Assembly: GCA_026128965.1 (NCBI GenBank)
Contig: JAHCIY010000002.1
Coordinates: forward strand, 2,000,468-2,064,467
Origin: Labilithrix sp.
Lineage (GTDB): Bacteria; Myxococcota_A; Polyangia; Polyangiales; Polyangiaceae
Direction of reading: 5' to 3'
DNA length: 64,000 nt
Part shown: positions 8,330 through 29,096 of the stretch, one piece after another
Position numbering within the stretch: position 1 is the stretch's first letter
Layout of the letters: every line of letters starts with the position of its first letter
Notes under the pieces: model-generated
The model's input: only the letters and a program-made list of their open reading frames with translations
The model's database searches: none
What the model was told of the DNA's origin: nothing
Made by a program: the position numbers and the translations under genes

Positions 8330-10738
8330 GTGCGTTTGGTCGATGACGTGACGGCTTCTCGTAGCGAGCCCGTCCCCGAGCCGCCGAAGAGCGAGACGCG
8401 ACCGGTCGCGGTCGCTCCGAACGGCGGCCCCGTGCCCTGCCTGCGGCTCTTCGCCGACGAGGTCGTCATCCATCGCACCGAGGGCCTCGGCTCGACGTTC
8501 GACAACGAGCTCGTGCCGCTGCTCGAGCTCTCGTTCGAGTACGAGGGCGTGAAGGTGCTCGCCGCGGACGAGGACGACGAGGTCATGATCGACCTCGACC
8601 GCTTCGTGCCGCGCTCGCAGGTCGACGAGGCCCGCGCGCGGCGCATGCTCGAGAGCTTCGGCGCGGTCCCGCTCGAGTGCCTCGACGACTACGCGTGCGA
8701 CGCGACGGCCGACTACGTCGTGCGCTGCGAGGGCAACGTCCACGACTTCTGCGGCTTCAGCGCGTACGTCGTCCCGCAGCTCCGCGGGATGGGATGGAAG
8801 GTCGACGTCGATCCGAAGTACCCGTTCAAGGTCGTGCAGGGCGAGCCCGCGTGGCAGGCCACCGTCACGTCGGGTCCTTCGCGCGAGGGCGACGCGGAGG
8901 GCGGCGAGAAGGAGGCCCTTCGCCCCGACTGGTTCGGCATCCAGCTCGGCGTCGTCGTCGACGGCAAGCGCGTGAACCTGCTCCCCGCGCTGCTGGAGCT
9001 CCTCGAGCGCTCGAACGGCAAGCCGCTCGCGGAGCTCGCCGCGACGACGTCGCGCAAGTGCCTCGCCCTCCCGGTCGGCGACGGCCTCTACCTCCCGATC
9101 CCGGCCGAGCGCGCGCGCGCGATCCTGCGCGTGCTCGCGGAGCTCTACGACGGCACGTCACCGAAGGGCGAGCTGCGCGTCCATCCGACGCGCGCGGGCG
9201 CGGTCCTCGCGCTCGACGAGATCTTCGCGAAGAACGGCGGCGAGATCAGCTTCGGCGGCGACGCGCGCGCGCTCGCGGTGGTGGAGGAGCAGAACGCGCC
9301 CGTCGTCCGCGTCGAGCAGCCGAAGGGCCTCCAGGCGACGCTCCGCGACTACCAGATCGACGGTGTCTCGTGGCTCCAGAACCTCCGCCAGCGCGAGGTC
9401 GGCGGCATCCTCGCCGACGACATGGGGCTCGGGAAGACGCTCCAGACGATCGCGCACGTGATGGTCGAGAAGGAGGGCGGGCGCCTCACGACGCCGGCGC
9501 TCATCATCGCGCCGACGTCGCTCGTGATGAACTGGCAGCGCGAGTTCCGGAAGTTCGCGCCCGAGCTCCGCGTCCTCGTCGTGCACGGCAGCGATCGCGC
9601 CTCCGCCTACGACGGCATCCGCGACGCCGACGTCGTCGTGACGAGCTACCCCATCGTCTGCCGCGACGAAGAGAAGTTCGCGGAGTGGGAGTTCCACCTC
9701 GTCATCCTCGACGAGGCGCAGACGATCAAGAACATGAAGAGCCGCGCCCACGTCGCGTGCCGCTCCATCGTCGCGACGCACCGCCTCGCGCTCTCCGGCA
9801 CCCCGGTCGAGAACCACCTCGGCGAGCTCTGGTCGCTCCTCGACTTCGTGAACCCGGGCCTCCTCGGCGACGAGCTGCACTTCAACCGCTTCTACCGCGT
9901 CCCGATCGAGCGCCTCCGCAACGAGGACCGCCTCGCCGCGCTCCGCGAACTCGTTGCACCTTACATCCTTCGCCGCAACAAGCGCGACGTCGCGAAGGAG
10001 CTCCCGAAGAAGACGGAGGTGATGCGTCCGGTCGAGCTCCACGGCCAGCAGCGCGAGCTCTACGAGTCGATCCGCGTCGCGGCGCACGCGGAGGTACGGA
10101 AGCTCATCAAGAAGAAGGGCCTCGCCGCCTCGACGATCCCGATCCTCGGCGCGCTCACGAAGCTCCGTCAGGTCTGCTGCGATCCGCGCCTCGTGCGCAT
10201 GACGAACGTCGCGCTCCCGAAGGAGTCCGCGAAGTACCGCATGTTCTTCGACCTGCTCGACAAGCAGCTCGCGGGCGGCCATCGCGTCCTCGTCTTCTCG
10301 CAGTTCACGAGCATGCTCGGTCTCCTCGAGCAGGGCCTCGTCGAGCGCAAGGTGAAGTACGCGATCCTCACCGGCTCCACGGCCGATCGCGCGGAGGCGG
10401 TCGACCAGTTCGAGAAGGGCGGCGCGAAGGTCTTCTTGATCTCGCTGAAGGCAGGCGGCACGGGCCTCACCCTGACGAGCGCCGACGTGGTCATCCATTA
10501 CGACCCGTGGTGGAACCCGGCCATCCAGGCGCAGGCGACGGACCGCGCCTACCGCATCGGCCAGAAGAAGCCGGTCATCAGCTACCAGCTCTTCGCCGCC
10601 GGCAGCGTCGAGGAGCGCATCCTCGGCCTCCAGCGCTCGAAGAAACACGTCGCCGACGCAATCCTAGGTCAGGGCCCCGCCGGCAACCCCCTCGGCGAAG
10701 CCGAGCTAGACATCCTCTTCGCTCCGCTCGGCGCGTAA
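8330..10738 (+). CDS. SNF2/RapA-family DEAD-like helicase
   Basis: Motifs DDMGLGKT, ILDEAQTIKN, SATPVENHLGELWSLLDF, a helicase C-domain and QAQATDRAYRIGQ. The GTG start at 8330 is chosen downstream of the divergent gene that starts at 8203. The upstream part of the 6590.. ORF is shadow. Confidence 0.8.
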   Translation: MRLVDDVTASRSEPVPEPPKSETRPVAVAPNGGPVPCLRLFADEVVIHRTEGLGSTFDNELVPLLELSFEYEGVKVLAADEDDEVMIDLDRFVPRSQVDEARARRMLESFGAVPLECLDDYACDATADYVVRCEGNVHDFCGFSAYVVPQLRGMGWKVDVDPKYPFKVVQGEPAWQATVTSGPSREGDAEGGEKEALRPDWFGIQLGVVVDGKRVNLLPALLELLERSNGKPLAELAATTSRKCLALPVGDGLYLPIPAERARAILRVLAELYDGTSPKGELRVHPTRAGAVLALDEIFAKNGGEISFGGDARALAVVEEQNAPVVRVEQPKGLQATLRDYQIDGVSWLQNLRQREVGGILADDMGLGKTLQTIAHVMVEKEGGRLTTPALIIAPTSLVMNWQREFRKFAPELRVLVVHGSDRASAYDGIRDADVVVTSYPIVCRDEEKFAEWEFHLVILDEAQTIKNMKSRAHVACRSIVATHRLALSGTPVENHLGELWSLLDFVNPGLLGDELHFNRFYRVPIERLRNEDRLAALRELVAPYILRRNKRDVAKELPKKTEVMRPVELHGQQRELYESIRVAAHAEVRKLIKKKGLAASTIPILGALTKLRQVCCDPRLVRMTNVALPKESAKYRMFFDLLDKQLAGGHRVLVFSQFTSMLGLLEQGLVERKVKYAILTGSTADRAEAVDQFEKGGAKVFLISLKAGGTGLTLTSADVVIHYDPWWNPAIQAQATDRAYRIGQKKPVISYQLFAAGSVEERILGLQRSKKHVADAILGQGPAGNPLGEAELDILFAPLGA

Positions 10739-14991: not shown

Positions 14992-16587
14992 TCAGGGACC
15001 GCCGCTCTTCACGTCGCGGCCGAGCGCGTGGTCGAGGCGGATGCGGGCGAGGCGCGCGTCCACCTTCGCGTTGAGGTGCTCGAAGCGGGACTGCGCGAGC
15101 GCGGTCTCCGCGTCGATGAGCGTGGTCGAGGTGCCGCGGCCCGCGTTGAACAGCTCGCGCGCGACGCGGTAGGCCTCCTCCGCGCTCTCGAGCTGGCGCG
15201 TCGTGGTCGTCACCGCGACGTCGGCCTCGAGGACCTCCTGGTACGTCTGCGCGACCTCGATCTCGATGCCGTCGCGCACGGTCTGCTTCTGCGCGTCGAG
15301 CGCGTTCGCGCGGGCGATCGCGTCGCCCTCGGCGGGGCCGGCGGTGAGGACGTCGTTCGGCGACCAGGTGATCTGCGCGCCCGCGGTCCAGGTCGGGAAC
15401 CACTCGTCGCGCTGCGGGAAGCGGCGCTGGTTCGGGTTCGCGTACGTCACGTCGCCGAAGGCGGAGAGGGAAGGGTACTTGCCGCGATCGGCGACCTTCG
15501 CGAGGCGCCGCGCGGCCTCGGCGTTCTTGTCGAGGCTCTTCAGCTCGGGGCGCGCGCCGTGCGCTTCGCTCACGAGCATCTTGAGGTCCTGCGGCGCCGC
15601 CGGCACCGGGCTGTCGAGGCTCTCGCCGGGCACGAGCGTCTCGTCCTCCTTCGCGTGCGTCGCGACGCGGACCTGGCGCTCGGTGATGAGCGCGCCGTTC
15701 TTGCCGCGCTCGACCGCGAGCTCCGCGGCGGCGACCTGCGTCTCCGCGCGGAGGACGTCGGCCTTCGACGCGTTGCCGACCTTGAACTGGTTCTCCGCGT
15801 CCTTGAGGTGCGCCTTCGCGACCGCGAGCGACTGCTCCGCGACGACGGCGGCGCTGCGGGCGCGGAGCCACGTGTAATATGCAATCTTTCCGTCGGAGTA
15901 CGACTTCGCGCGCGCGGTCGCGACGTCGTGGCGGGCGGCCTCCTCCTGCTTCAGCGCGGCGGTGTAGCCCTCGTTGATCTTGAGGAAGTAGTCGCTGATC
16001 GGGACCGAGATGGTGGCCTGCGCGACCCAGTTGTCGAGGATCATCGGGAACCTGATCCCGTTGAACGACGGCGGCAAGAACCCGCTCAAGCGCGTGTATC
16101 GGCCGAGGAGGCCGACGCGCGGGACGAAGTTGTTCCGCTGGCCGTCCGCGCGCGCCTCCGCGGCCTGCGCGTTGTCCGCCGCGGCCTTCGCCTGGTAGCT
16201 CGTCGCGGCCGCGCGCTGCGCGACCTGATCGGCGGTGATGCCGCCGGCGACGGTCGTGCTGAGGTCGGGGACGCCGCTCGTCGCGCCTTGCTGGGTCACA
16301 GTGTCGCGCGGGGCTCCGGGCGCCATCGTCGGCGGCGGGGGCGAGTAGCCGGGCTGCGCCGGCGTCACGGTCGGCGCGGGGGCGGGCCCCGCGGTCGGCG
16401 GCGCGGGGGCGGGCGGCGGCGTGTACGTCGGGACCGGCGCCTGCGTCTGCGGGATCGTGTACGGCGTCGTTCCCGCGTTCTGGTTGTTCGGGTTCTGCTG
16501 CGCGGCGGCGGTCGCCGCGGTGAGCGAGCTGCCGAGGGCGAGCGCGCACGCCGCGTACGACGCGGGGCGCGTTCCAAAGCTACGCAT
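14992..16587 (-). CDS. TolC-like outer membrane efflux protein
   Basis: Signal peptide, Pro/Thr/Ala-rich linker, then two TolC-type repeat halves (alpha-helical coiled-coil plus beta-barrel segments). The ATG complementary to 16585-16587 is preceded by an AAAGGA ribosome-binding site. Confidence 0.75.
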   Translation of the reverse strand: MRSFGTRPASYAACALALGSSLTAATAAAQQNPNNQNAGTTPYTIPQTQAPVPTYTPPPAPAPPTAGPAPAPTVTPAQPGYSPPPPTMAPGAPRDTVTQQGATSGVPDLSTTVAGGITADQVAQRAAATSYQAKAAADNAQAAEARADGQRNNFVPRVGLLGRYTRLSGFLPPSFNGIRFPMILDNWVAQATISVPISDYFLKINEGYTAALKQEEAARHDVATARAKSYSDGKIAYYTWLRARSAAVVAEQSLAVAKAHLKDAENQFKVGNASKADVLRAETQVAAAELAVERGKNGALITERQVRVATHAKEDETLVPGESLDSPVPAAPQDLKMLVSEAHGARPELKSLDKNAEAARRLAKVADRGKYPSLSAFGDVTYANPNQRRFPQRDEWFPTWTAGAQITWSPNDVLTAGPAEGDAIARANALDAQKQTVRDGIEIEVAQTYQEVLEADVAVTTTTRQLESAEEAYRVARELFNAGRGTSTTLIDAETALAQSRFEHLNAKVDARLARIRLDHALGRDVKSGGP

Positions 16588-16705
16588 GGGAGTCCTTTCT
16601 CGCGGGCTCTTCGATGCCGTTCGAGGGTCGGTCGTCACGGCGGCGTTTCTACTTCGCTTCTTCACAAAAACCTGGACGAAAATGCGCGGCTTCTAGAAGG
16701 ATTCT

Positions 16706-17551
16706 GTGCACGCGATGGCATTCCAGCGGCCGGCGAGGGGCCAAACCTCGACGTATGGGACCCGCTGGGGACTGCGGCGTCTGCTGCTCTTGATGTCGGG
16801 GCCCGGCATCCCGTTGCTCTTCGCGCTGCTGCTCGGGTGTCCGCCGCCGTATCAGCCGAAGAAGCTGGAGATGGAATCGATCGGCACGACGAAGGACGTG
16901 CCGACCACGACCCTGGACGATCCCGGCGACGGCGGCGTCGTCGCGCCGAACAGCGGCACGCCGTCGCCGGGCAGCAGCGGAGGCGTCAACACGCTCTGCA
17001 GCGGCTCCGAGTTCGAGGACCTCGCCGACGCGCTTCGTTCCTGCGAGGTGCCGATGCCGAAGGCGTCCGAGGTCGGGTCGATGAGGGACAAGGTCGAGGT
17101 GAAGGTGACCGCGAGCACGTCGACGACGTCGCCGGGCGGTCGGATCGATCTCCAGATCACGCTGCGGAACAAGTCGTCGAGCGATCCGGTCACGGTCTAC
17201 TTCACCGGCGACCCGTACCCGCGGTTCGACGTCGAGGCGACGGACTCGCGGGGCCGGCGCGCCGATCTCCCCGACAAGCGCTGGCCCGGCTATCCGAAGG
17301 GCATGAAGCCCGAGGCCCGGGAGACGAAGGCGTCGCGCGTGACGCTCGACAAGAACGGCACCGCGAAGGTGAAGATCTCGTGGGACGCGGTGAGGACGAA
17401 GTGGGCGCCCGACAAGGCGAGGAGCTGGGAGGGTCGCGGCTACCCCCGCGTCCCGTCGGGGCCGCTCCCGAAGGGGAAGTACTCGCTGAAGCTCATCCTC
17501 CCGATCTTCGGGGACGTCGAGGTGCCGAAGGTCCCGGTCGAGGTCTCGTGA
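16706..17551 (+). CDS. hypothetical lipoprotein
   Basis: LLFALLLGCPPP lipobox. The start is ambiguous; an alternative ATG lies at 16793. Confidence 0.5.
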   Translation: MHAMAFQRPARGQTSTYGTRWGLRRLLLLMSGPGIPLLFALLLGCPPPYQPKKLEMESIGTTKDVPTTTLDDPGDGGVVAPNSGTPSPGSSGGVNTLCSGSEFEDLADALRSCEVPMPKASEVGSMRDKVEVKVTASTSTTSPGGRIDLQITLRNKSSSDPVTVYFTGDPYPRFDVEATDSRGRRADLPDKRWPGYPKGMKPEARETKASRVTLDKNGTAKVKISWDAVRTKWAPDKARSWEGRGYPRVPSGPLPKGKYSLKLILPIFGDVEVPKVPVEVS

Positions 17552-17707
17552 CGCTGGATCGTGCGTTACGCACAAGGTGGGTAAACCCACGTGCTGCCGG
17601 CCGACCGCTGGAAAATGAAACAACTTCGTTTTCGCGTGCTTACGTCGGGGACGTTGCGCAGTAGGCAGCTCACCTACATTGGCCTACTGGTTGCTCTCGG
17701 ACCGAAC

Positions 17708-19024
17708 ATGCTCCGTCGGTCCCTCTTCGCGTCGCTCTTCTTCGTCGGCTCTCTCTCGTTCGGCGCGGGCTGCTCCGGCAGCGAGGCGGGCGACACGCCC
17801 GAGAACAAGGACGACGACTTCGCGTCGGACCAGGCGACGCTCCTCGACTTCGAGTTCGACGGGGCGCTCACGACCGACTTCTCGTGGAACGACGAGACCA
17901 CGATCCAGTCGCAGCTCCTCTACACGGTGGGCCACCTGAACTGGGACAACTCGGTCGGCCGCCTCGACGCCCTCGAGCTGACGAACATCCAGAAGAAGAG
18001 CCTCGGTGGCGACAAGATCGAGATCTCCTACCACGCGAAGCTCCCGGTCGCGTGGGGCAGCAAGACGAACCTCCCGAAGACCTACGAGCTGAAGCTCCCG
18101 AAGGACGTGAGCCACGAAGGGCTCGAGGCGTTCGTCGACGCGCACAAGGACCGCTGCGTCGACCGCGGCGCGCACGACCTCGACGCCGGCAGCATGTGGT
18201 ACTACTACCGTCCGCAATCGGGCGGTTGCACGTTCCAGAGCGGCGAGCTCTCGACGCCGACGGCGAAGGTCACCGTCTCGAAGCTCAACACGAAGGACAA
18301 GTACCCCGAGTACCACGAGGTCTGGAAGGACGACCGCCTCGAGGTGGTGGCGATCTTCGGCAAGTACGAGGCGACGGGCGGCGCGTGGGACGCGGGCGTC
18401 CAGGCCTTCAACGGCTTCGCGCAGAAGATGAAGGAGACGCTCGGCCCGAACAAGCTGAAGACGACGCCGGCGAACGTGGGCGATCGACCGGCGCCGGAGA
18501 CGAAGGACATCACGTTCGAGGCGACGCTCCCCGACGGCAAGCAGGTGAAGGTCACCGCGCTGATGGTCGACGCGATCACGAGCGTGTGGGACGGCTTCGA
18601 CGAGCGCTACGAGGAGGTCGCCGGCAGCGCGGACGTCATCGCGTACAACGGCCACGCGGGCCTGGGCCAGAACGTCCGCGCGCTCGCGCGGATGGGCAAG
18701 TGGCAGAAGCAGAAGTACCAGATCTTCTTCATGAACGGCTGCGACACGTTCGCGTACGTCGACGGCTCCCTCGCGGAGACGCGCGCCGCGATCAACAGCG
18801 ACGACCCGAACGGCACGAAGTACATGGAGTTCGTGACGAACGCGATGCCGAGCTTCTTCCACTCGATGGCGGAGGCGAGCACGACCATCATCACGAGCCT
18901 CCTCGACTACCGTTCGCCGAAGACCTACGAGCAGATGTTCAAGGGCATCGACCGCGCCGAGGTCGTCCTCGTCACGGGCGAGGAGGACAACGTCTTCAAG
19001 CCAGGCATGAAGATCGGCCGCTGA
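17708..19024 (+). CDS. hypothetical lipoprotein
   Basis: MLRRSLFASLFFVGSLSFGAGCSG signal plus lipobox beginning at the ATG at 17708. The ORF track start at 17591 would add a 39-aa N-terminal extension. Confidence 0.55.
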   Translation: MLRRSLFASLFFVGSLSFGAGCSGSEAGDTPENKDDDFASDQATLLDFEFDGALTTDFSWNDETTIQSQLLYTVGHLNWDNSVGRLDALELTNIQKKSLGGDKIEISYHAKLPVAWGSKTNLPKTYELKLPKDVSHEGLEAFVDAHKDRCVDRGAHDLDAGSMWYYYRPQSGGCTFQSGELSTPTAKVTVSKLNTKDKYPEYHEVWKDDRLEVVAIFGKYEATGGAWDAGVQAFNGFAQKMKETLGPNKLKTTPANVGDRPAPETKDITFEATLPDGKQVKVTALMVDAITSVWDGFDERYEEVAGSADVIAYNGHAGLGQNVRALARMGKWQKQKYQIFFMNGCDTFAYVDGSLAETRAAINSDDPNGTKYMEFVTNAMPSFFHSMAEASTTIITSLLDYRSPKTYEQMFKGIDRAEVVLVTGEEDNVFKPGMKIGR

Positions 19025-19096: not shown

Positions 19097-19465
19097 TCAC
19101 TTCTTCTTGTGGTGCTTGCCCTTACCGTGCCCGCCGGCGCGAAGCTCCTTCGAGATCTGCCGTACGGCCTTGGCCTCGTCTTTCGTGACGGTCCCATCCG
19201 CCGTCGCCTTGGCGACCTCGGCGTTGACCTTGGCGACCCCGGCATCGAACTTGGCGCGAAGCGCCTTCGCGTCGTCCGCCGACAGCTTCGACGCCCGCTT
19301 CTCCATCCGTTCCCGCGCCTTCGCCTGCCGCGCCGTCACCTTCTGCTGAAACGCCGCCGCCGGCATCGGAAAGCTCGCCCCACCTTTGTGCTCCCCCGCC
19401 ATCGCCGGCGCCGCCGCAAGGAGGGTAGAGATCGCAAGAACCGCAGCCGTGATCGTGGAACGCAT
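19097..19465 (-). CDS. small secreted Lys/Ala-rich periplasmic protein
   Basis: The internal start MTMRSTITAAVLAISTLLAAAPAMA gives a clean signal peptide. The mature part is helical and K/A-rich. Confidence 0.45.
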   Translation of the reverse strand: MRSTITAAVLAISTLLAAAPAMAGEHKGGASFPMPAAAFQQKVTARQAKARERMEKRASKLSADDAKALRAKFDAGVAKVNAEVAKATADGTVTKDEAKAVRQISKELRAGGHGKGKHHKKK

Positions 19466-19556
19466 CGTCATCCTGTTCTTTCTGTCGAGGAAGTGGGGGC
19501 CCGTCCTGTCAGGCCTGGGAAGATAGACGGCCCTCCCAATCGCTCGATAGGTCGGT

Positions 19557-20435
19557 TTACCGTTCTTTACGGGCCGCGAAGTGCTGCGCCGCGACGATTC
19601 GGAGCTGCTGTGTCGCACGGGCCCAATCGCGCACCGCGGGCTGCAGCTCCGGCGCTTCGGTTTGGTAGGTTACAACCTGAGCTGCGATGAGATCGAGGCG
19701 CTCTTCCACTGTGAGGGTGGGCGGAAGGGGGGCGACGCCGTGTTTGCCGCGCGCATCCATACGCCCAAGCGATACGGAGAGGCTGATACGACGCCCCTCG
19801 GCCCGAGGCGAGCAAGCGCCGCCCCAGTGAAGAACATTCGCGTTCCAGACGACGGTTGTGCCTGCCGTCACCGGCACGGCGCGCACGGAGGCCAGCGGCG
19901 CGTCCGTCGAGTCGAGGGCGTTCGGGTAGTGCGGATCTTCGTCGAGCGGGACCACATGCATACACGCGCGCTCTGCGGTGACGTCGGAGAGCGCCGTCCA
20001 CGCCGTGAGCAGCTCGGGCGCTTCGCGGTCGAGGAGGACCGAGCCGCCTCCGCGATGCGGCTTCCAACCACGCTCCCCCGGCGCGATCGACCAGGCCCAG
20101 GCGTCTTCGAGGAGCTCGTACGTATGGCCGAGAAGGAGGCTCACGGTACGTTCGATCTCGCGGGCATGGCGCCACACGTCGTCGAGCATGAAGACGAACA
20201 CCGGCGGCCACCGCGCGGCATGCAAAGTCTCCATCGCGCGGCACAGGCTACGCGCTCGCGCGCTCGTGAGCGCGCCGGCAATGACGGCATATCCCTCGGT
20301 TCTCAGCCACGTCAGCTCCTGCGTGTCCGCGGCCGGGCAGGCGTCGTCGGCTCCTGTTCCGTCCATCAGCTCCGTGAACGCCGCTGCGAGCTCACGGGGG
20401 GAGCGAAGAAGCTCGGGCGCGAGCGAACGCATCAT
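19557..20435 (-). CDS. PhyH-family Fe(II)/2-oxoglutarate-dependent oxygenase-like protein, divergent from the lasso precursor gene
   Basis: The core LTAWTALSDVTAERACMHVVPL matches the PhyH w.alDd.t.enG.l.v.pg motif. The C-terminal GTTVVWNANVLHWGG..SPRAEGRR matches the distal-His plus Arg 2OG-binding motif. In the first His motif, PHRGGG replaces the usual WHxD. Confidence 0.55.
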   Translation of the reverse strand: MMRSLAPELLRSPRELAAAFTELMDGTGADDACPAADTQELTWLRTEGYAVIAGALTSARARSLCRAMETLHAARWPPVFVFMLDDVWRHAREIERTVSLLLGHTYELLEDAWAWSIAPGERGWKPHRGGGSVLLDREAPELLTAWTALSDVTAERACMHVVPLDEDPHYPNALDSTDAPLASVRAVPVTAGTTVVWNANVLHWGGACSPRAEGRRISLSVSLGRMDARGKHGVAPLPPTLTVEERLDLIAAQVVTYQTEAPELQPAVRDWARATQQLRIVAAQHFAARKER

Positions 20436-20527
20436 CGGAAGATAGCGAGGCTGGTCGCCTGGTTGCTACCCAGTGGGCGTTGAGCTACAAGCTTGGTGAA
20501 TGAGATGCGAGCCGCTCGCATCTGGAG

Positions 20528-20722
20528 ATGGAGATGAGCGCCGAACCGAAGGCCCCGAGCGAGATCGAGACGCCATCCGCGGCGTCAGCGAGGGAGCGTC
20601 GTCCCTACCATCCTCCGAAGCTTCGTTGTCTGGGTTCTGTTCGAGACCTCACTTATGGAACCGGCGAGATGTTCCCCGACTTCTCGGGTGGTCCGGCTGG
20701 GGCCATGGCCGCGCCGATGTGA
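20528..20722 (+). CDS. lasso peptide precursor (A); predicted core GTGEMFPDFSGGPAGAMAAPM
   Basis: The leader ...PYHPPKLRCLGSVRDLTY places Y-17, P-14, L-12, G-8 and T-2 relative to core Gly1, which is the YxxPxLx3Gx5Tx RRE-recognition motif. The core has Gly1 and Asp8. Its stop is coupled (ATGTGA) to the start of the next gene. An alternative ATG at 20534 follows GGAG. Confidence 0.6.
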   Translation: MEMSAEPKAPSEIETPSAASARERRPYHPPKLRCLGSVRDLTYGTGEMFPDFSGGPAGAMAAPM

Positions 20723-22110
20723 CCGAGGCGCCGTACCTCGTCTTCTCCAGCCGCCTCTGTCGCAGCGAGCGCCTCACGGACGTCGTCCGCGGCGGTATGA
20801 TCCCGCCGAATCCGGACGTGTATGCGGCCTACGCGAGGTGGTCGCTTCTCGTCGACCATGAAGCGACGCCGTATCGCGGCGTCGTGTCGACGCTCGTCGA
20901 GTCGAACGGGGCGCCGTCGAATGCAGAGCCAGACGTTCCGGTGCCCGCCGATGAAGAAAGCGCGGCACGCGCGCTGCGCCAGAGCCTCGAGGCGGCGGTT
21001 CAGGCGTCGATGGGCGATGCGCGCCGGGTCGCGGTGTCCACCGGCGGCGGTCTCGACTCCGGCGTTCTCCTTGCGCTCGCCGTGCACGTCGCGCGGAGAG
21101 CGAAGAAGGAGGTCGTCGCCGTCGCGCTCGACTTCGGCGGCGCTGGCGATGATCGACCTTACCTCGCGGATCTCGAGCGCGAGCTCTCTTGCGAAGTCGT
21201 GCGCGTTCCGCCCGAGCGCGGTGCCGACCACGTTGCGTTGCTCGACGGCGTCGACGCAGCGCCCTTCTATTGCCCGACAGGGCCGATGGAAGCGGCCGTG
21301 ATGGAGCACGCCCGTGCCGCCGGCGCGGAGCGTGTGCTGACGGGAGCCGGCGGGGATCAGCTCTTCGACGGGCGCGCGACCGATCTGGCAAGCTTCCTCC
21401 GTCGCGGTCACGTCCTCGAGGGGATTCGGCGGGCGCAAACGCTTCGTGGCTTCGAGCAGCCACGCTCTCCGATCGTTACCTGGCTCGTGCGCCCGCTCCT
21501 CGCGAGCCTCCTTCCGCCTTCGATCCGAGCTCGCCGCGCGGGACGGTCGAGCGGTTTCGTCCCGGCGTGGGCAGGCCCCGCGCTCGAGGACCTGGAGGCG
21601 AGGCGGCGCCGTCAGACGACGGCCATGCTGGAGAAGTGCCTTCCCGATCTACGGCCATTCGAGGATCGGATCTTCGTCGCGCAACGTGTTCAGTTCGCGT
21701 GGCTTCGTCATCAACAGACGCTGACGAGCGGCATTCGTAGAGTCGACCCGTTCCTGCGCCCAGACCTCGTGCAACGGGTCCGCTCCCTCCCGCGCGAATG
21801 GCTCCTCCATGGCGGCATTCGACGAGGTCTCTTGCGCGCCGCCGTCCGCGATCTGATCCCGGCCTCGTTGGCTCGTCGTGAGGACAAGGCCTCCGTCGAG
21901 CCTGCGCTCGTCCGTTTCCTCCGCGCCATCGGAGGGCGCGCGGCGCTGCGACCATATGCGTCCGTCGACGTGCTCGCTTCGCTCGGTGTCGTCGACCGCG
22001 CTCGCTTCGCCGCGGCCTACGAGGCCTTCGTCGACCAACCCGCGCATCCGGCTGGATGGCTCGGCGCGTGGTGTGTCCTCGCGCTCGAGCGCTTCGCGAG
22101 GACCGCGTGA
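20719..22110 (+). CDS. asparagine-synthetase-like lasso cyclase (C)
   Basis: SGGLDS PP-loop (VSTGGGLDSGVLLALA) and a C-terminal asparagine-synthase-type domain. The GTG start overlaps the precursor stop. The N-terminal GATase-like region is short. Confidence 0.7.
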   Translation: MTEAPYLVFSSRLCRSERLTDVVRGGMIPPNPDVYAAYARWSLLVDHEATPYRGVVSTLVESNGAPSNAEPDVPVPADEESAARALRQSLEAAVQASMGDARRVAVSTGGGLDSGVLLALAVHVARRAKKEVVAVALDFGGAGDDRPYLADLERELSCEVVRVPPERGADHVALLDGVDAAPFYCPTGPMEAAVMEHARAAGAERVLTGAGGDQLFDGRATDLASFLRRGHVLEGIRRAQTLRGFEQPRSPIVTWLVRPLLASLLPPSIRARRAGRSSGFVPAWAGPALEDLEARRRRQTTAMLEKCLPDLRPFEDRIFVAQRVQFAWLRHQQTLTSGIRRVDPFLRPDLVQRVRSLPREWLLHGGIRRGLLRAAVRDLIPASLARREDKASVEPALVRFLRAIGGRAALRPYASVDVLASLGVVDRARFAAAYEAFVDQPAHPAGWLGAWCVLALERFARTA

Positions 22111-22910
22111 GCGTGCGGTGGTTGGCTCATCACGAAGTCGACGGAGCGCTCGCCTTCCGCATAGGAGCGACCGGATCCGACGGGCTCGTGGCCGAGTGGA
22201 TGGGGATCGGCCGACTCGTCTCCGATCGGGCGGGGTGCAACGCGCGCTTCGAACCCGAGCCGGGGGCTTCGCCGGAGCTGCTGGCGAAGGTCGAACGTGG
22301 CGGTGCCGCGATGCTGCTCCGTCATCTCTCCGGCGGCCTTGCGCTGCACGGCGCGTGCGTCGCGATCGGTCGACGCTCGGTCCTCCTGACCGGCCAGAGC
22401 GGAGCGGGCAAATCCACGCTCGCGGCCTGGCTCGTCGCGCGCACGTCCGACGCGGAGCTCGTGAGCGACGATCTCACGCCCCTCGAGCTCGACGAACGAG
22501 GGTGGGCTGCGCTTCCTCTGGAGCGCGATCATTGGCTCGACGCGGTCGCGGTTGAGGCGCTCGGGAGCGCGTCGATGGAGTCCGCGAACAAGCGGCCGTT
22601 TCCGGCGCCCCGTTCGGCGCGCGGGGCGACACACCTCGCCGCCATCGTCTCGCTCGAGTTCGCCGACGCCGACGCGCCGATCTTGTCGACCGTGAGCGGC
22701 GTCGAGGGACTCCACATCCTCTTGAAGCAATCGGTCCGCTTCGCGATCGACGAGCCTGAGCGACATCGTCGCGAGCTGGACGTGCTCGTCGCGCTCGCCT
22801 CGGACGTCGCCATCCTCCGTCTCTCGCGACGCCGGGACCTCTCGGCACTGAGTCACGCCGGCGAAAGGCTTGAGACGTGGCTGCGAACGGGTAGGGTCGA
22901 TCAGCCATGA
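22107..22910 (+). CDS. HPr kinase/phosphorylase-like protein (lasso peptide kinase candidate)
   Basis: GQSGAGKST P-loop followed by LVSDD, as in the HprK C-terminal domain. The GTG start overlaps the stop of the C gene. An alternative ATG lies at 22056. Confidence 0.7.
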   Translation: MSVRWLAHHEVDGALAFRIGATGSDGLVAEWMGIGRLVSDRAGCNARFEPEPGASPELLAKVERGGAAMLLRHLSGGLALHGACVAIGRRSVLLTGQSGAGKSTLAAWLVARTSDAELVSDDLTPLELDERGWAALPLERDHWLDAVAVEALGSASMESANKRPFPAPRSARGATHLAAIVSLEFADADAPILSTVSGVEGLHILLKQSVRFAIDEPERHRRELDVLVALASDVAILRLSRRRDLSALSHAGERLETWLRTGRVDQP

Positions 22911-23197
22911 ACGTGCCCGAGACCATCGACGCCGCGACCTCGGTAGAGGCATCGGACAACGTGTACGCGAGGCGTTTCGGCGACGAGCTGATCCTCCTTC
23001 ATTTCGGGCGTGGTGAGTACTACGGGCTCGACCCCGTCGGTGCGTGCATATGGGAACGCTGCGCTGCCGGTGAGACGCTTGGCGACATAGCGCGCGAGGT
23101 CGTGCGATCGTTCGACGTCGACTACCGGCAGGCGCTCGCGGACGTCGTGGCGCTCGTGGGCGAGCTGCGAACGGCAGGATTGGTCAAGGAGCGTTGA
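22907..23197 (+). CDS. PqqD-like RiPP recognition element protein (lasso B1)
   Basis: 96 aa with ELILLHFGRGEYYGLDPVGACIWE..GETLGDIA...VDYRQALADVVALVGELRTAGLV, which is typical of PqqD/RRE. ATGA overlap with the kinase stop. Confidence 0.75.
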   Translation: MNVPETIDAATSVEASDNVYARRFGDELILLHFGRGEYYGLDPVGACIWERCAAGETLGDIAREVVRSFDVDYRQALADVVALVGELRTAGLVKER

Positions 23198-23243
23198 TGC
23201 CACGGGATGTCGCGCTCGACATGGTTTCTGGTATATAGCTCTC

Positions 23244-24266
23244 ATGAAGTCCCTTCGCTTGATCATCGGGGCGTCCGTTGCGCTCTCCGCGAGCATGGCT
23301 CTGCTCGTCGCTTGCGGCGATGACGCAGGCCTCGTCCTCGACGTCGTAGACTCCGGTACCGACGGAACGGTAGCGGACGTGAACCGTCCAGACGCGGTGG
23401 GCGATGTCGACGTGCCCGACGTCGACGTGCCCGACGCCGACACGCCCGACGTCGACGTGCCCGACGCGGACGCGGGAGTGGACGACGGCGGGCCGACGTT
23501 CTTCGATGCGGCGACGTTCGATGCGGGTCCCGACGCCGGGTTCGTGCCTGACTCGGGGGGAGCCGCGGTCCAGCTCGGGGAGGTCTTCTGCAGTACCGTC
23601 GCGCGTTGCTGCTTCGGCGACGCCACCCTCCAGCAGGGAGCTCCGCTTCCGGGCGGCGGCACCTACAACCGCCAAAAGTGCCTGAACAACTACGCGAACA
23701 ACGGGTTCGAGCAAGCGAGCAACGGCTCGGCGGTGAATCCGAACCACGTCATCGTCAGTCAGACCAACAGCGCGGACTGCGCGCAAAAGCTCGAGGCGCT
23801 GACCTGCAACGTCGGGTTCGACGAGTTCAAGGCGGTCCGAGCTGCCTGCTATGGTGCGCTCCTCGGCACTCAAGGGCCGGAGCAATCGTGCTCCGTCAGC
23901 GCCGAGTGCCAAGCCGGTCTCTTCTGCAACAACCCGACGAACGGCAACGATACGGGTAAGTGCGAGCTCGTTCGCGCGACGGGCGCGAACTGCGGCGACT
24001 TCACGACCAACGCCAATACCTCTCAGCACGCCTGCTCGTATCGCTACAGCGGTGACCCGCCTCGCTACTGCGAGTGGTTTGACTTTACCGAGCTCAAGGC
24101 GCTCCCTCCCGCGGAGTGGAAGTGCAGGGACGCGAAGCCGAACGGCTCCGACTGCGTCTCTTCGGCCTGGTGCTCGGCCGGTATCTGCAACTTCGACACA
24201 GCGAAGTGCGAGACTCCGACGACGTACTTTACCACGGACGACTGCTCCCAATACCGGACGCCCTAG
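23244..24266 (+). CDS. Cys-rich lipoprotein with a DVDVPD-repeat linker
   Basis: Lipobox LLVACGDD, a VDVPDVDVPDADTPDVDVPDAD repeat and about 20 Cys in the C-terminal domain. It is inserted between lasso B1 and the nucleotidyltransferase gene. Confidence 0.55.
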   Translation: MKSLRLIIGASVALSASMALLVACGDDAGLVLDVVDSGTDGTVADVNRPDAVGDVDVPDVDVPDADTPDVDVPDADAGVDDGGPTFFDAATFDAGPDAGFVPDSGGAAVQLGEVFCSTVARCCFGDATLQQGAPLPGGGTYNRQKCLNNYANNGFEQASNGSAVNPNHVIVSQTNSADCAQKLEALTCNVGFDEFKAVRAACYGALLGTQGPEQSCSVSAECQAGLFCNNPTNGNDTGKCELVRATGANCGDFTTNANTSQHACSYRYSGDPPRYCEWFDFTELKALPPAEWKCRDAKPNGSDCVSSAWCSAGICNFDTAKCETPTTYFTTDDCSQYRTP

Positions 24267-24278
24267 ATCGCGCGGGTC

Positions 24279-25286
24279 ATGCGAGAGCCTCTGGCGCGAG
24301 CGGACGAGGCGCTCGTGAGAGTTCTGCGCGGCGACGTGCCGGCCTGGCTCGACGACGTCCACGCTCTCTTCGTCCGCGCGGAGGTGCATGGTCTTGCGGG
24401 GGTCGTGGACGCGAAGCTGCGAGGACGGCCCGAGCTCGACGAGTCGCTCCGCGACGTTCGGCTTCGCGAGCTGGCACGGGCGCTCGACCACGCAGCTCAT
24501 CTCGATCTCCTCCACCGTATCGATCACGCGTTGGTGAGCGCGGGCATCGGCGCGATCGCGCTGAAGGGCGCCCTCCTGGCCGAGAGGCTGTATGCCACGC
24601 CGTCGTCTCGGGTAACGAGTGACGTCGACCTCCTGGTCGCCGAAGCCGACACTCTTGCTGCGATCGAAGCGCTGTCCACGATCGGGTACTCGCACGACGA
24701 CAACGAGACCGAGCGGCGCTATCGGCGCGAGCATCACCACCTCCACCTCTCGCATGCGGCGTCGCTTCCGCTCGAGCTCCACTTCCACGCGTATCGTGGT
24801 TTTGGCTCGACGTTGCGGAGCGAGCCGCTTCTGCGCCGGAAGGAGCGTGTTCGCGATTTCGAGGCTATCGGCGTGCTGTCCGCCTCGGACGAGCTCGCTT
24901 ACCTTGCCGTGCACGCGGCCGCTCATCGGTTTGGGCGCATCGCCTGGCTCTACGAGCTCGCCCTCCTCGTTGGCCGAATGTCGGGCGAGGAGGTCGCCCT
25001 CGCAGCTCGTCACGCGGCCGATGCCGGGTATCGCCGGGTGGTCGGCTTCGCGGCGGATCTCCTCGTCGACGTGTTGGGAGTCGATCCTGCGCGCGTCGCG
25101 CCTCTGCGACGACTCGGGAGCTCACGAGGGCGTGTTGCTCGTGCCCTCGTGCGCGAACCCGCGCATCCGCGTATGCGCTCGCTGTCACGCTTCGTCTATT
25201 CGCTCGCGCTCTGCGACGATCCCGCCTCGACTGTGCGCTACGCGAGACGAGCGGTGCTCGGATACATCACCGCGCGTAGCGCATGA
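24279..25286 (+). CDS. PF14907-type (NTP_transf_5) nucleotidyltransferase-family protein
   Basis: GIGAIALKGALLAERLY....SDVDLLV motif and a C-terminal helical domain. This family is commonly linked to lasso/HPrK-type clusters. Confidence 0.65.
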   Translation: MREPLARADEALVRVLRGDVPAWLDDVHALFVRAEVHGLAGVVDAKLRGRPELDESLRDVRLRELARALDHAAHLDLLHRIDHALVSAGIGAIALKGALLAERLYATPSSRVTSDVDLLVAEADTLAAIEALSTIGYSHDDNETERRYRREHHHLHLSHAASLPLELHFHAYRGFGSTLRSEPLLRRKERVRDFEAIGVLSASDELAYLAVHAAAHRFGRIAWLYELALLVGRMSGEEVALAARHAADAGYRRVVGFAADLLVDVLGVDPARVAPLRRLGSSRGRVARALVREPAHPRMRSLSRFVYSLALCDDPASTVRYARRAVLGYITARSA

Positions 25287-26436
25287 CGAGCTCGCGCACC
25301 TGCCGCGCGAGCGAGGCGCGCGGGTGTTTCGGGAACGCTGCCGCCGTCCGCTCCTCGATGTCGTGGAGAGATGCGGTGCCATCCATCGCGGAGAGGACGA
25401 ACGACGCGAGCGCCGCGCGCGGGCCACGCTCGGGGGCGAAGGACGAGGACGCCTTGCGCAACGTCTCGATCCCGACAGGCATACCGAAGAAGCTGGCCTG
25501 ACGGAGCGCGATCTCCTTGCGGTCGACGTCGGTCGCGCTGACGTTCCAGGCCCATTGCACCGCTTGCTCGTCGACACGGAGCGTCACTTCGATCCGAGCA
25601 CCGCGCGCGACGCGGATCGGGCGGAGGAGCGGCAAGACGGTGCGTGGGTACGCCATCGTCGTTCCCGGGCGGTTCTCGTACTCGATGTCATCGTCGACGC
25701 GGGCCTTGAACCAGACGACGAGGCCGTGCATCTCGGCGTCGCGCGTGGCCTCGAGCGCCACCGTGCCCGCGATGACGCCTCCTTGCCATGACCCATAGTC
25801 GACCGCACCCCAGGACGTGGAGGTGGTCACGACGTCGCTCGCGGTCACCTGCAAGAGATCGCGTTCGGAGTGCCGGGTATTGAGGGTCGAGAAGAGCGCG
25901 GCCTCGCCGCGAAAGCCGAGGCGCTCGAAGCTCTGGGCCGTCAGCGAGAGACGATGCTGGAGCTCGAAGGACTCGAAACCGGCCACGAAGAACTCGTCGG
26001 CGACGGGGAACATCACGCCTCCGGGGCGCAGGAAGCGCGCGCGTGCGTCGCGTACGATCTCCGCGTGCTGGTCGTGCAACGCGAAGGCGCCGCGCAAGTC
26101 GGATACTACGACGTCGGCCTTCTCCGAGAGCTCGACGTCGAACGAGCTCGCGGCGTGAACGTGGATCTTCGACGCGAGCCCGTTCTCGGCCGCCAGGTCG
26201 CGAAGGAGATGGACTGCAGGATTGATCTCGATCGCATGAACGGCGCGCGCGCCGAGGCGCGCCGCGATTAGCGCCGCGATGCCTGTACCGGATCCGATGT
26301 CGACGACGACGGAGTCTGCGGTCACACGTCGCGACAGGGCGCGAGCGTAGGCGTCCATCCGGACACCGTCCCGCATCATCGCGGCATAGCTCAAGACCGA
26401 ATACATCGCTCGAGTAGACCAGAATGGTCCTAGCAT
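25267..26436 (-). CDS. class I SAM-dependent methyltransferase (PRMT-like fold)
   Basis: SAM-binding motif VVVDIGSGTGIAALIAARLGARAVHAIE, a post-I acidic residue and THW-like beta-barrel C-terminal region. An alternative start at M11 is possible. Confidence 0.7.
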   Translation of the reverse strand: MLGPFWSTRAMYSVLSYAAMMRDGVRMDAYARALSRRVTADSVVVDIGSGTGIAALIAARLGARAVHAIEINPAVHLLRDLAAENGLASKIHVHAASSFDVELSEKADVVVSDLRGAFALHDQHAEIVRDARARFLRPGGVMFPVADEFFVAGFESFELQHRLSLTAQSFERLGFRGEAALFSTLNTRHSERDLLQVTASDVVTTSTSWGAVDYGSWQGGVIAGTVALEATRDAEMHGLVVWFKARVDDDIEYENRPGTTMAYPRTVLPLLRPIRVARGARIEVTLRVDEQAVQWAWNVSATDVDRKEIALRQASFFGMPVGIETLRKASSSFAPERGPRAALASFVLSAMDGTASLHDIEERTAAAFPKHPRASLARQVRELVMRYAR

Positions 26437-26443
26437 CGCGAGG

Positions 26444-28048
26444 TTGTCTCCGGTGGACGTCGCTCACTCGCGGTTGAGTCTCCGGAACCTACTCGTTCTC
26501 GTTCGCAGTTGTACGACTGCGAGGACACGGCGTCTCCTTCTCCTGCTCTTACTCCTCTGCCTTGGCGCGCGCTTCGGCCTCGTCGGCGTCGCTGTCGCTG
26601 TCTCGGCGCAGCGCTACGACGTCGCCGGCATCGTCAGCGTCGCGGCCGTCGCGCTCGGCTTCGCCCAACGGATCGCCGTCTCGCACCTCCGCGTCGCGAT
26701 CGAGTGTGACGCGCTCGTGCACGTCGCTCGACGTCTTCTCGGGTCCGACCTATTCGAGACGTCCGAGTTCGCATTGCGGCTCGCGGTCGAGAACGGGATC
26801 TGGGACATCCAGGAGTTGCTCCTCATGGCGCCGAGCGCGATCGCCGATGCGATCGTGACGCTCGGTTTGCTGCCCGTCCTCGGGGCGGTCGTTCCACCGC
26901 GGTTACTCGCGCTGGCCGTCGTCGCGCTCGTCGTCGTGTTCGGTGCGAGCCTTGCGTTTCGGCGCACGGCCTTCCGTCTCCATGCCGAGACGATGGAGGC
27001 TCGCATGAAGGTCGCCGACACCTTCTCGCTTGCGGTCGAAGGACGGCTAGAGATGGTCGCGATGGGCGCGGAGGAGCGCTTCGAGGAACGGTTCGCTCGT
27101 GACATCGCCGAGTACGCCCGCCGGAACCGCCGCAGCGCATTCGGGACACTCACGATCGGTCGTGCACCGCTCGTCGCAGCGGCAATGCTGATCGCCCTCG
27201 TCATCTTGCTCGACGTCGGCACACGCGCTGCGCTGACGGAGGCGCTCGCGCGCTGGGCGCTGCTGCTCGGCGCTTCGTTGCCGTCGCTGCTCGGCGTTTC
27301 GCTCGGGGTTCAAGGGCTCCTTCGTGGGAGCGCGAAGGTCCAGCCGCTTGCGGAGGTGATGTCCAGCCGACTGCGCGAGCCAGGCGGGACGCAGACGCCG
27401 GTGCTCCCGGCCGCTGTGCGCGTCGACGCGCTGAGCTTTGCGTACGGCGGTGCGAGCGCTCCGCCGCTCCTTCGTGACCTCTCGTTCGAGTGGAGCCCGG
27501 GGCGCGTCCTCCTCCTCAGCGGTCCCAACGGATCGGGCAAGAGCACGGTCCTCCGTCTCCTGCTCGGACTGCGACGGCCGACGTCCGGTTCCATCCGCGT
27601 CGATGGCACCGATCTCGCGCGCCTCGATCTGCGCGCGCTCCGCGAGCAGGTCGTCTTCCTTCCGCAGCGGCCCTACCTCGGCGAGAGCCACGTCAGCGTT
27701 CGCGCCGCGCTCCTCTTCGGGCGCACGGCAAAGACGGATCGAGAGTGCGAGGTCGCGCTCGAGCGGGTCAAGCTCGACCTCGGCGCGCGTCCGCTCGATC
27801 GAAGGCTCACTGAGCTCTCGGGTGGGCAGAGGCAGCGTCTCGCGCTCGCGCGTGTGCTGCTTCAGGACGCGCAGGCGTTCTTGCTCGACGAGCCGGACGC
27901 AAACCTCGACCGGGCAGGTGTGCATCTCGTGATGGCGCTCGTTCGTGAGCTGGCGGAGGAAGGAAAGCTCGTCGCGATGGCGGCCCACTCGACCGAGCTC
28001 GCCGAGGTTGCCGACGAGATCGTTGCGGTCAAGGCGCCGGGCGGGTGA
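26444..28048 (+). CDS. ABC exporter with fused transmembrane and ATPase domains (lasso D-type)
   Basis: N-terminal TM helices. Walker A (LSGPNGSGKST), signature (LSGGQRQRLALARVL) and Walker B (FLLDEPDANLD). Confidence 0.75.
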   Translation: MSPVDVAHSRLSLRNLLVLVRSCTTARTRRLLLLLLLLCLGARFGLVGVAVAVSAQRYDVAGIVSVAAVALGFAQRIAVSHLRVAIECDALVHVARRLLGSDLFETSEFALRLAVENGIWDIQELLLMAPSAIADAIVTLGLLPVLGAVVPPRLLALAVVALVVVFGASLAFRRTAFRLHAETMEARMKVADTFSLAVEGRLEMVAMGAEERFEERFARDIAEYARRNRRSAFGTLTIGRAPLVAAAMLIALVILLDVGTRAALTEALARWALLLGASLPSLLGVSLGVQGLLRGSAKVQPLAEVMSSRLREPGGTQTPVLPAAVRVDALSFAYGGASAPPLLRDLSFEWSPGRVLLLSGPNGSGKSTVLRLLLGLRRPTSGSIRVDGTDLARLDLRALREQVVFLPQRPYLGESHVSVRAALLFGRTAKTDRECEVALERVKLDLGARPLDRRLTELSGGQRQRLALARVLLQDAQAFLLDEPDANLDRAGVHLVMALVRELAEEGKLVAMAAHSTELAEVADEIVAVKAPGG

Positions 28049-28226
28049 CAGCGCGGCGCGTGACGGCGATAACCGCTGGTCGTGTGACACCGTCGAACGG
28101 GGAGCGCGAGAGCGTGGCGAGGTTCAAGCCGGTCCGGGCATAGAAAGGAGCGAGTCGATCGCCGCATCGACGAGGATCGGACGTCTGGGGAATCCCTGCA
28201 AGGTGCTACGTTGGGCAGACCACGCG

Positions 28227-29096
28227 ATGGCGACGGCGCCGCTCCTCAGCGTTGGAATCCCGTTCCTCGACGAGGAGCGCCTGCTCGCGGCTGCGATCCG
28301 CAGCGTGCTCGCGCAGACGATGTCGGACTTCGAGTTGCTCGTCATCGACGACGGCTCGACGGATCGCTCGTTGGAGATCGCCCGCGGTTTCGCCGATCCT
28401 CGCATCATCGTGCGCTCCGATGGCCGGAGGAGGCACCTCGCGACTCGACTCAATGAGGTCACGCGGCACGCGCGCGGGCGCTACGTGGCCCGGATGGACG
28501 CTGACGACGTCGCGCATCCGCGACGTTTCGAGGAGCAGCTCCGGCTGCTCGAGCGCGACCCTGCGTGCGACGCAGTCGGGACCTGGGCTGGCATGATCGA
28601 CGAGCACGCGGAGCCTCTGGCGATAATCGAAGCGTCGGAGCACGGCCTCACTCCGCGGCGCGTTCTCGAGCATGGGGTCATGCCGCACCCAACGCTCCTC
28701 GCTCGCCGCGAGTGGTTTCTCGCCCATCCCTACGACGAGACGCTCACGCGGACGGAGGATCGAGAGCTCTGGTGCCGTACCGCGGCACGGACGCGTTTCG
28801 CGATCGTGCCGTCGCCGCTCTACGTTCTTCGTGTCCGACCGACCGAGCCGTCGTTCGTCTCCGACTACGTCGAGACACAGCGGCAGAACTGCGTGCTGTT
28901 TCGTCGGTACGGCCCGCAGATGATCGGGCGCACCGGCACCGCGCGCGCGTGGTTGAGCGCGCATGGCAAGTCTCTGGTGACGCGCGCGGCCGTCGCGCTC
29001 GGAGCCGGCGACCGTCTGGTTCGCCGCCGCGGGCGTGCACCGACGGCGCCGGAGCGCGCGCTCATCGACGAAGCGGTGGCGGCAGCGCGCGGGTGA
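28227..29096 (+). CDS. family 2 glycosyltransferase
   Basis: LSVGIPFLDEERLLAAAIRSVLAQTMSDFELLVIDDGSTD is the GT2 DxD-region signature. The ATG at 28227 is preferred over the ORF start at 27945. Confidence 0.7.
   Translation: MATAPLLSVGIPFLDEERLLAAAIRSVLAQTMSDFELLVIDDGSTDRSLEIARGFADPRIIVRSDGRRRHLATRLNEVTRHARGRYVARMDADDVAHPRRFEEQLRLLERDPACDAVGTWAGMIDEHAEPLAIIEASEHGLTPRRVLEHGVMPHPTLLARREWFLAHPYDETLTRTEDRELWCRTAARTRFAIVPSPLYVLRVRPTEPSFVSDYVETQRQNCVLFRRYGPQMIGRTGTARAWLSAHGKSLVTRAAVALGAGDRLVRRRGRAPTAPERALIDEAVAAARG

Follow-up and report, generated by a model that had tools for sequence, protein, structure and literature searches.

An HxG-type PhyH-fold Fe(II)/2-oxoglutarate enzyme encoded beside a lasso-type peptide gene cluster in Labilithrix: a candidate halogenase from a Polyangia-specific clade

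What chemistry is left to an iron enzyme that has lost the carboxylate ligand of its metal, and does it act on the lasso-type peptide encoded next to it? The question is raised by a 64,000-nucleotide stretch of Labilithrix sp. DNA (assembly GCA_026128965.1, contig JAHCIY010000002.1, positions 2,000,468 to 2,064,467; about 70% G+C; hereafter the window), in which a gene for a member of the PhyH family is transcribed divergently from a gene for a lasso-type precursor peptide, 92 bp away. The PhyH-family gene specifies an Fe(II)/2-oxoglutarate (2OG) enzyme of the PhyH fold in which the canonical HxD...H triad has been turned into HxG...H; the glycine replaced the Asp of HxD ancestors and became fixed in a clade specific to Polyangia. 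The protein is very likely an active two-histidine Fe/2OG enzyme linked to the lasso-type cluster. Halogenation of the SyrB2/WelO5 type is the single most likely outcome of its reaction, unproven and put forward tentatively.

The predicted protein is 100% identical to a database sequence (P0001) from a metagenome-assembled genome (MAG), which is annotated as 'phytanoyl-CoA dioxygenase family protein [Labilithrix sp.]'. Membership of the PhyH superfamily, claimed in an initial annotation of this DNA, is confirmed by a score of 38.1 bits over residues 120-207 against Pfam PF05721 (gathering threshold 22 bits) and by the double-stranded beta-helix fold: an AlphaFold2 model built from 61 homologues (predicted local distance difference test score, pLDDT, 93.2; predicted template modelling score, pTM, 0.91) contains the expected beta-sandwich. 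The strings quoted in that annotation (GWKPHRGGGS, SVLLDREAPE, LTAWTALSDVTAERACMHVVPL and NANVLHWGG...RAEGRR) are all found in the translation.

The two iron-binding histidines of the superfamily are present as H127 and H203, and the position of the carboxylate is occupied by G129, which falls on the ligand Asp or Glu in three independent alignments. A profile of 61 sequences pairs 'ppHRGv' with 'sPHQDA' of PHYHD1, placing G129 on the Asp of HQD; phmmer pairs 'kpHRG' with 'lHRE' of EasH; and the most distant homologues have H[FV]D or HRD in the column of HRG. Single-sequence phmmer searches of the PDB gave marginal matches only, and the 61-sequence profile was used instead. In the same profile, the NANVLHWGG and gpRvS segments match, in SnoN, the distal His and PRLS and, in PHYHD1, the distal His and the Arg, and an Arg of the R-x-S type, expected to bind the C5 carboxylate of 2OG, follows the distal His. 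The glycine at His+2 and the distal His/Arg motif (H203 and R216, both invariant) were thus read correctly from the start, and the profile mapping of the facial triad that had been proposed as a check yielded no hidden Markov model alignment with Asp or Glu at the second ligand position. No conserved His-x-Asp/Glu is present elsewhere in the protein.

In the alignment of 61 homologues, G123, W124, H127, W146, W197, H203, W204, G205 and R216 are invariant, and conservation reaches at least 90% at R128, G129 and S218; among approximately 100 sequences at 30-50% identity, both His, W146, W204, G205 and R216 are again invariant and S218 is 98% conserved. G129 is Gly in 100% of the 92-member HRG clade. 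Since both His and the 2OG-binding residues W146, R216 and S218 are intact, the active site looks, as far as sequence can tell, functional rather than decayed.

The change from Asp to Gly can be placed in the history of the family. HRG is found in 93 of 100 database homologues, all of the HRG sequences being from Polyangia; three others have HRD and four have H[FV]D. HRG also occurs in all 20 of 20 genome hits, which represent Labilithrix (the cultured L. luteola DSM 27648 among them), Polyangiaceae, Sorangium and MAGs of other Polyangia. Neighbour-joining trees proceed from the HxD outgroup through HRD sequences (P0096/L026/L049, then P0095/L025) to a single HRG clade, within which three more HRD sequences (P0015, L032 and L036) are nested. 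The simplest history suggested by these sequences would be one Asp-to-Gly change at the base of the clade, subsequently fixed, with occasional reversals. The nested HRD genes lie in other gene arrangements: P0015 (like P0095 and P0096, placed in context from a short contig) follows an HTH_8 gene fragment, L032 (532-1287) follows an ABC ATPase gene, and L036 (17-742) has a response-regulator-like open reading frame (ORF) downstream on the opposite strand, its upstream side being beyond the end of the contig. Such a difference in context is expected if Gly versus Asp alters the chemistry. Two of the basal HRD genes, L026 and L049 (the third is L025), adjoin ScmC-like and methyltransferase-like genes, and therefore the association with peptides made on the ribosome and modified after translation (RiPPs) may be older than the Asp-to-Gly change.

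The initial annotation placed the PhyH gene at a lasso-type peptide locus, and comparative genomics upholds this as a conserved divergent pairing with the precursor gene. The same arrangement recurs in contigs from JGI and ENA and in the majority of genome and metagenome loci whose flanks are long enough, and the constant set across loci consists of PhyH, precursor, cyclase, ScmC-like protein, PqqD and methyltransferase (Table 1). The precursor fits the pattern expected of lasso peptides, a YxxPxLx3Gx5Tx leader and a core with Gly (or Ala/Ser) at position 1 and Asp or Glu at position 7-9, as do those of more than 30 loci; in the window, YHPPKLRCLGSVRDLTY is followed by GTGEMFPD..., with Gly1 and Asp8 in the core. 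The match of the window precursor to the NCBIfam model lasso_leader_L3 is weak (15.3 bits, cut-off 19). The cluster also pairs an asparagine-synthase-like cyclase with a PqqD-type RiPP recognition element, to which the lasso-specific NCBIfam models match below their cut-offs (for the cyclase, macrolactam cyclase NF033561 at 2e-19 and lasso cyclase NF033535 at 2.9e-10). The cyclase ORF overlaps the precursor gene, and translation of the cyclase probably starts near 20797, downstream of the stop codon of the precursor; begun there, the cyclase would be short, at approximately 440-460 aa.

More than 30 precursors encoded beside PhyH share the leader RRxYxxPxLxxLGSVR[DE]LT[LFYW], followed by a core of 14-21 aa that begins with Gly (rarely Ala, Ser or Leu), has an acidic residue at position 8 or 9, and is otherwise variable, except that every core beside an HRG-type PhyH gene (more than 30 loci) ends in Met. 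The core in L. luteola DSM 27648 (NZ_CP012333.1, about 7.835-7.856 Mb) is GGTMGKAEGFNSFMMM. One Polyangiales MAG (L015) has two precursor genes, at 9747 (-) and 15426 (+), with the cores ASKGNPLPDGGFTQAM and GGSSGIAEGAGTFVMAM, both ending in Met. Literature searches found no lasso family with an invariant C-terminal Met. As an invariant residue amid a variable core, the C-terminal Met is the obvious feature for one of the tailoring enzymes to act on.

With more doubt than assurance, it may be proposed that the HRG clade comprises the first Fe(II)/2OG radical halogenases to act on a ribosomal lasso-type peptide, having arisen independently of the SyrB2, WelO5 and BesD lineages through a single Asp-to-Gly change, and chlorinating an unactivated carbon, plausibly in the C-terminal Met. 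The PhyH enzyme would be catalytically active and would tailor the lasso-type peptide: 2OG would bind in bidentate fashion to iron held by two His, and the Fe(IV)=O that forms would abstract hydrogen from an unactivated C-H of the peptide, for which the invariant C-terminal Met offers the most obvious conserved target. The site emptied by the Asp-to-Gly change would take up an exogenous anion, and the near-invariant Ala199 (Phe in outgroups) would enlarge that site further. Chloride bound there would rebound onto the substrate radical to yield a chlorinated peptide, possibly as a cryptic intermediate, and the natural HRD paralogues would be the matching hydroxylases.

The evidence that points to halogenation begins with the motif itself. 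All known Fe/2OG halogenases are marked by a missing carboxylate, as in SyrB2 (H116/A118/H235), where chloride takes the place of the carboxylate; the corresponding feature, Ala or Gly at proximal His+2, is present as HRG in 100% of the clade, with HxD in the outgroups. The second point is A199, four residues before the distal His, which is Ala in 99% of the clade and Phe in four outgroups, making this position small and apolar in the PhyH enzyme; the next residue, N200, is invariant in the clade. The changes from Asp to Gly and from Phe to Ala together enlarge the ligand pocket, which favours a halide. In the published structure of SyrB2, the equivalent position four residues before the distal His is that of Ser231, which lines the chloride pocket.

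Several observations weigh against halogenation. The TIGR01762 model ('chlorinating enzyme'), which covers the SyrB2/CmaB/CurA-Hal halogenases of the PhyH superfamily, scores only 13.4 bits over 28 residues (cut-off 226.3), so that there is no family-level sequence similarity to the Labilithrix enzyme; neither SyrB2 nor CurA Hal is among the matches listed for sub-profiles of residues 99-145 and 99-178, and comparison of the predicted fold gives no preference for either of them over ordinary oxygenases. SyrB2-type enzymes have Ala at the carboxylate position, whereas the Labilithrix enzyme has Gly, and the trees indicate that the carboxylate was lost independently in the two groups. SyrB2 and CmaB act on carrier-tethered aminoacyl substrates with a thiolation-domain or nonribosomal peptide synthetase (NRPS) partner, but the neighbours of the Labilithrix gene are RiPP genes and its presumed substrate is a ribosomal peptide; no NRPS, carrier protein or chloride-utilizing partner (for example, a cyclopropanase) was found between 12.9 and 36 kb of the window. 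Replacement of Asp by Ala or Gly alone never produced a halogenase from P4H or TauD. Two natural enzymes make the same point: AspH, with a two-histidine site of the HxG type, hydroxylates peptides and does not halogenate, and HygX, which has H-X-G and a relocated Glu, is documented as non-halogenating. With these two counterexamples, HxG does not imply halogenation. Of the earlier suggestion of a halogenase-like enzyme, therefore, the carboxylate-less PhyH site in a lasso cluster stands, and halogenase function does not follow from HxG. The literature searched describes no ribosomal peptide as the substrate of an Fe/2OG halogenase, and the initial annotation likewise stated that none is known to have been described for lasso peptides. 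In addition, two invariant Asp specific to the clade, D111 and D167, are candidates for holding a water molecule or binding the iron.

Genomic context provides another point against halogenation. A nested HRG sub-clade of shorter proteins (approximately 270 aa; L019, L042, L044, L046/L052/L053, L047 and L051) branches among the lasso-linked sequences but occupies a conserved, housekeeping-looking locus. This consists of an extracytoplasmic function (ECF) sigma factor gene, three small genes and genes for a lipid A acyltransferase-like protein, a protein of 137 aa, a ParB_N-like protein of 317 aa, PhyH, PilZ and VWA. The L019 protein has 54 residues between the two His motifs, compared with 65-70. 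The HRG site is therefore not exclusive to lasso clusters. Conservation outside lasso contexts had been named in advance as a finding that would speak against a halogenase acting on the peptide; this sub-clade partly bears that out, but most HRG genes lie beside a lasso-type precursor.

The strongest competitor, unlikely in itself, is an oxygenase that works as AspH does, with a tightly held water at the vacated site, positioned by a second-sphere Asp (D111 or D167), and that would hydroxylate, desaturate or otherwise oxidize the peptide without halide. Human AspH, the aspartate/asparagine beta-hydroxylase, likewise has a carboxylate-less two-histidine site (only H679 and H725) and constrained peptide substrates; water W1 replaces the carboxylate and is stabilized by D721, four residues before the distal His, and no halogenation occurs, which demonstrates that such a site can hydroxylate. 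Both candidate second-sphere residues of the Labilithrix enzyme are 100% Asp in the HRG clade; in the HxD outgroups, D111 is replaced by Asn, Gln or His and D167 by Val, Leu or Met, except that P0095 has Asp at both. D167 belongs to a PLDxDPxYP segment that takes the place of the usual PGSH loop of the family and aligns to VPGSH of SnoN, SnoK and PHYHD1. The alternation of Gly and Asp within the clade (P0015, L032, L036), the rest of the site being retained, would fit interchangeable completions of one hydroxylase site, and the HRG sub-clade outside biosynthetic clusters is easier to square with hydroxylation. The known Fe/2OG tailoring enzyme of a lasso cluster, CanE of Streptomyces canus, is described as a hydroxylase; it differs in organism and cluster type and is likened here by description only. 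However, the position equivalent to D721 is Ala, 99% conserved; AspH is outside the PhyH family and is not among the sequence, profile or fold matches to solved structures, making the likeness one of analogy only; and strict fixation of Gly from an HxD ancestry suggests changed chemistry rather than neutral drift.

An improbable alternative is that the substrate completes the triad, the alpha-carboxylate of the C-terminal Met (or another carboxylate of the peptide) binding the iron, with oxidation of the Met, for example by oxidative decarboxylation, S-demethylation or beta/gamma-oxidation. The presence of Met at the end of every precursor beside an HRG gene, while the rest of the core varies, is what this reading would predict, as is the cavity opened at the ligand position by the Asp-to-Gly and Phe-to-Ala changes; a plant Fe/2OG enzyme that oxidatively decarboxylates the C-terminus of a RiPP has been reported in a preprint, although with a normal triad, no unusual one being found when the preprint was checked for it. 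No precedent was found for an Fe/2OG enzyme in which a carboxylate of the substrate stands in for that of the protein, the paralogues in the PilZ/VWA context keep HRG without such a peptide nearby, and the methyltransferase or the kinase-like protein of the cluster could equally explain the conserved Met.

There is little likelihood that the carboxylate has merely been relocated, D111 or D167 binding the iron from another strand or loop and restoring a two-His, one-carboxylate site for a conventional oxygenase of unusual geometry. The model for such an arrangement is HygX, in which a relocated Glu lies four residues before the distal His and which, like the orthosomycin oxidative cyclases AviO1, EvdO1 and EvdO2, acts on oligosaccharides rather than peptides. 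The invariant D111 and D167 appeared shortly ahead of the Asp-to-Gly change, as indicated by P0095, which has all three Asp. That sequence also provides an objection: P0095, P0015, L032 and L036 retain D111 and D167 along with D129, which would over-coordinate the iron, a mild argument against either residue as a direct ligand. (Among all HRD variants, only the basal L026 and L049 lack D111 and D167.) The HygX position itself is Ala in the Labilithrix enzyme (A199), by which an E-X3-H arrangement of the HygX type was ruled out.

Two explanations are weaker still. Loss of metal ligands is a common route to pseudo-enzymes, but a non-catalytic PhyH-fold protein that binds the peptide or serves as a scaffold, its iron chemistry lost, is very unlikely, as the invariance of both His, W146 and R216 and the near-invariance of S218 across divergent homologues are unexpected after loss of function. 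The chance that the motif was misaligned by a few residues, as the initial annotation cautioned of its by-eye alignment, and that a normal HxD/E triad makes the Gly irrelevant, is negligible, being effectively refuted by the three alignments; the alternative ligand that it named, D136 in SVLLDREAPE, was rejected as only 82% acidic in the clade and located in a clade-specific variable loop insertion.

The remaining genes of the cluster (19097-29096; Table 1) resemble those of paeninodin- and pseudomycoidin-type clusters (the HprK-related 'A' system, with SynChlorMet ScmC/ScmD), with which they share the asparagine-synthase-like cyclase, PqqD, the HprK-like P-loop protein (whose orthologues carry PF27840 ScmC) and the PF14907 nucleotidyltransferase. 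In paeninodin, a C-terminal Ser is phosphorylated. The Labilithrix cluster differs in its Met-ended core, in the addition of PhyH, a methyltransferase related to protein arginine methyltransferases (PRMT) and a Cys-rich lipoprotein, and in lacking a nearby B2 peptidase: no transglutaminase-like B2 leader peptidase was found among the genes scanned between 12.9 and 36 kb of the window, nor in L001 or L002, and its gene may lie elsewhere, or another protein may stand in for it. The likeness of the methyltransferase is to PrmA and PRMT5 (ribosomal protein and protein arginine methyltransferases, respectively) rather than to the isoaspartyl or carboxyl O-methyltransferases of other lasso clusters, and the window core contains neither Arg nor Lys.

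Table 1. Features of the window around the PhyH gene (positions are numbered within the window; codon rows lie within the PhyH gene)
Feature	Position	Strand	Basis and remarks
TolC-like OEP, conserved near PhyH	14992-16665		Synteny
DUF4232-like protein, conserved near PhyH	16706-17551		Synteny
PPC-domain protein, conserved near PhyH	17591-19024		Synteny
Small secreted protein, directly downstream of PhyH, conserved	19097-19471	-	ORF; no Pfam family
PhyH-family Fe(II)/2OG enzyme	19557-20435	-	ATG start, 292 aa
Codons from distal His H203 (NANVLHWGG) through R216-x-S218, 2OG C5-carboxylate motif	19782-19829	-	Alignments and conservation
Codon D167, clade-specific invariant Asp in PLDxDPxYP	19935-19937	-	Conservation
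Codons H127-R128-G129, proximal iron motif in which Gly takes the carboxylate position	20049-20057	-	Alignments and conservation
Codon D111, clade-specific invariant Asp in the long strand that precedes the His motif; candidate for a relocated or second-sphere carboxylate	20103-20105	-	Conservation
Asparagine-synthase-like macrolactam (lasso) cyclase	20500-22110	+	Pfam Asn_synthase 2.9e-23
Lasso-type precursor peptide, 64 aa; leader ...RRPYHPPKLRCLGSVRDLTY; core GTGEMFPDFSGGPAGAMAAPM at 20657-20719	20528-20722	+	YxxPxLx3Gx5Tx match
HPr-kinase-related/ScmC-like P-loop protein	22056-22910	+	Hpr_kinase_C 9e-07 (below cut-off); HprK_rel_A 3e-06
PqqD-family leader-recognition protein (lasso B1)	22907-23197	+	Pfam PqqD 9e-18; lasso_PqqD models 6e-14 and 2e-10
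Cys-rich predicted lipoprotein, 340 aa, LVACGDD lipobox-like N-terminus	23244-24266	+	No Pfam family
PF14907 nucleotidyltransferase, in a subset of clusters	24279-25286	+	NTP_transf_5 1e-27
PrmA/PRMT-like S-adenosylmethionine-dependent methyltransferase, in nearly all clusters	25267-26436	-	PrmA 1.7e-09; Methyltransf_25
ABC exporter, fused membrane and ATPase parts	26444-28048	+	ABC_tran 3.6e-32
Family-2 glycosyltransferase, in a subset of clusters; start probably later	27945-29096	+	Glycos_transf_2 2.8e-29

Orthologues of the Cys-rich lipoprotein were located by tblastn between PqqD and the nucleotidyltransferase in most loci, and the nucleotidyltransferase co-occurs with the glycosyltransferase across clusters. 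In L001 and L002, the orthologues of the small secreted protein are 134-141 aa long, and identity across loci is 52-77%. Glycolysis genes come next after the glycosyltransferase. On the other side of the cluster, synteny extends over positions 14992-19471 in L001, L002, L005-L010, L022 and L037, and PFK is also retained in L001 and L002; synteny of this extent suggests that the whole region was inherited vertically in the Labilithrix lineage.

Literature searches found no published account of this cluster family or of a PhyH enzyme in lasso clusters, and the reference list of a 2026 review, as far as its entries indicate, includes no lasso tailoring enzymes of these kinds other than flavin-dependent Trp halogenases and CanE, the Fe/2OG hydroxylase. 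Characterized radical halogenases in the literature examined have small molecules or carrier-tethered amino acids as their substrates. Enzymes of this class are prized for the selective functionalization of C(sp3)-H bonds. If the HRG enzymes are indeed halogenases, a leader- or lasso-guided peptide halogenase would be a new class of biocatalyst and its product a new RiPP modification; if they are two-histidine hydroxylases instead, they would provide the AspH anomaly with a counterpart in bacteria, built on the PhyH fold. In either case, the cluster family itself is uncharacterized, being confined to Polyangia and distinguished by a C-terminal Met, a PRMT-like methyltransferase, an HprK/ScmC-like protein and no B2 peptidase at the loci scanned, and its presence in the cultured L. 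luteola DSM 27648 makes it directly testable. With approximately 100 HRG sequences, several nested HRD sequences and HxD outgroups, the family contains a natural switch between Gly and Asp at the position of the ligand, and this series could be used to probe what, beyond the missing carboxylate, decides between transfer of Cl and transfer of OH.

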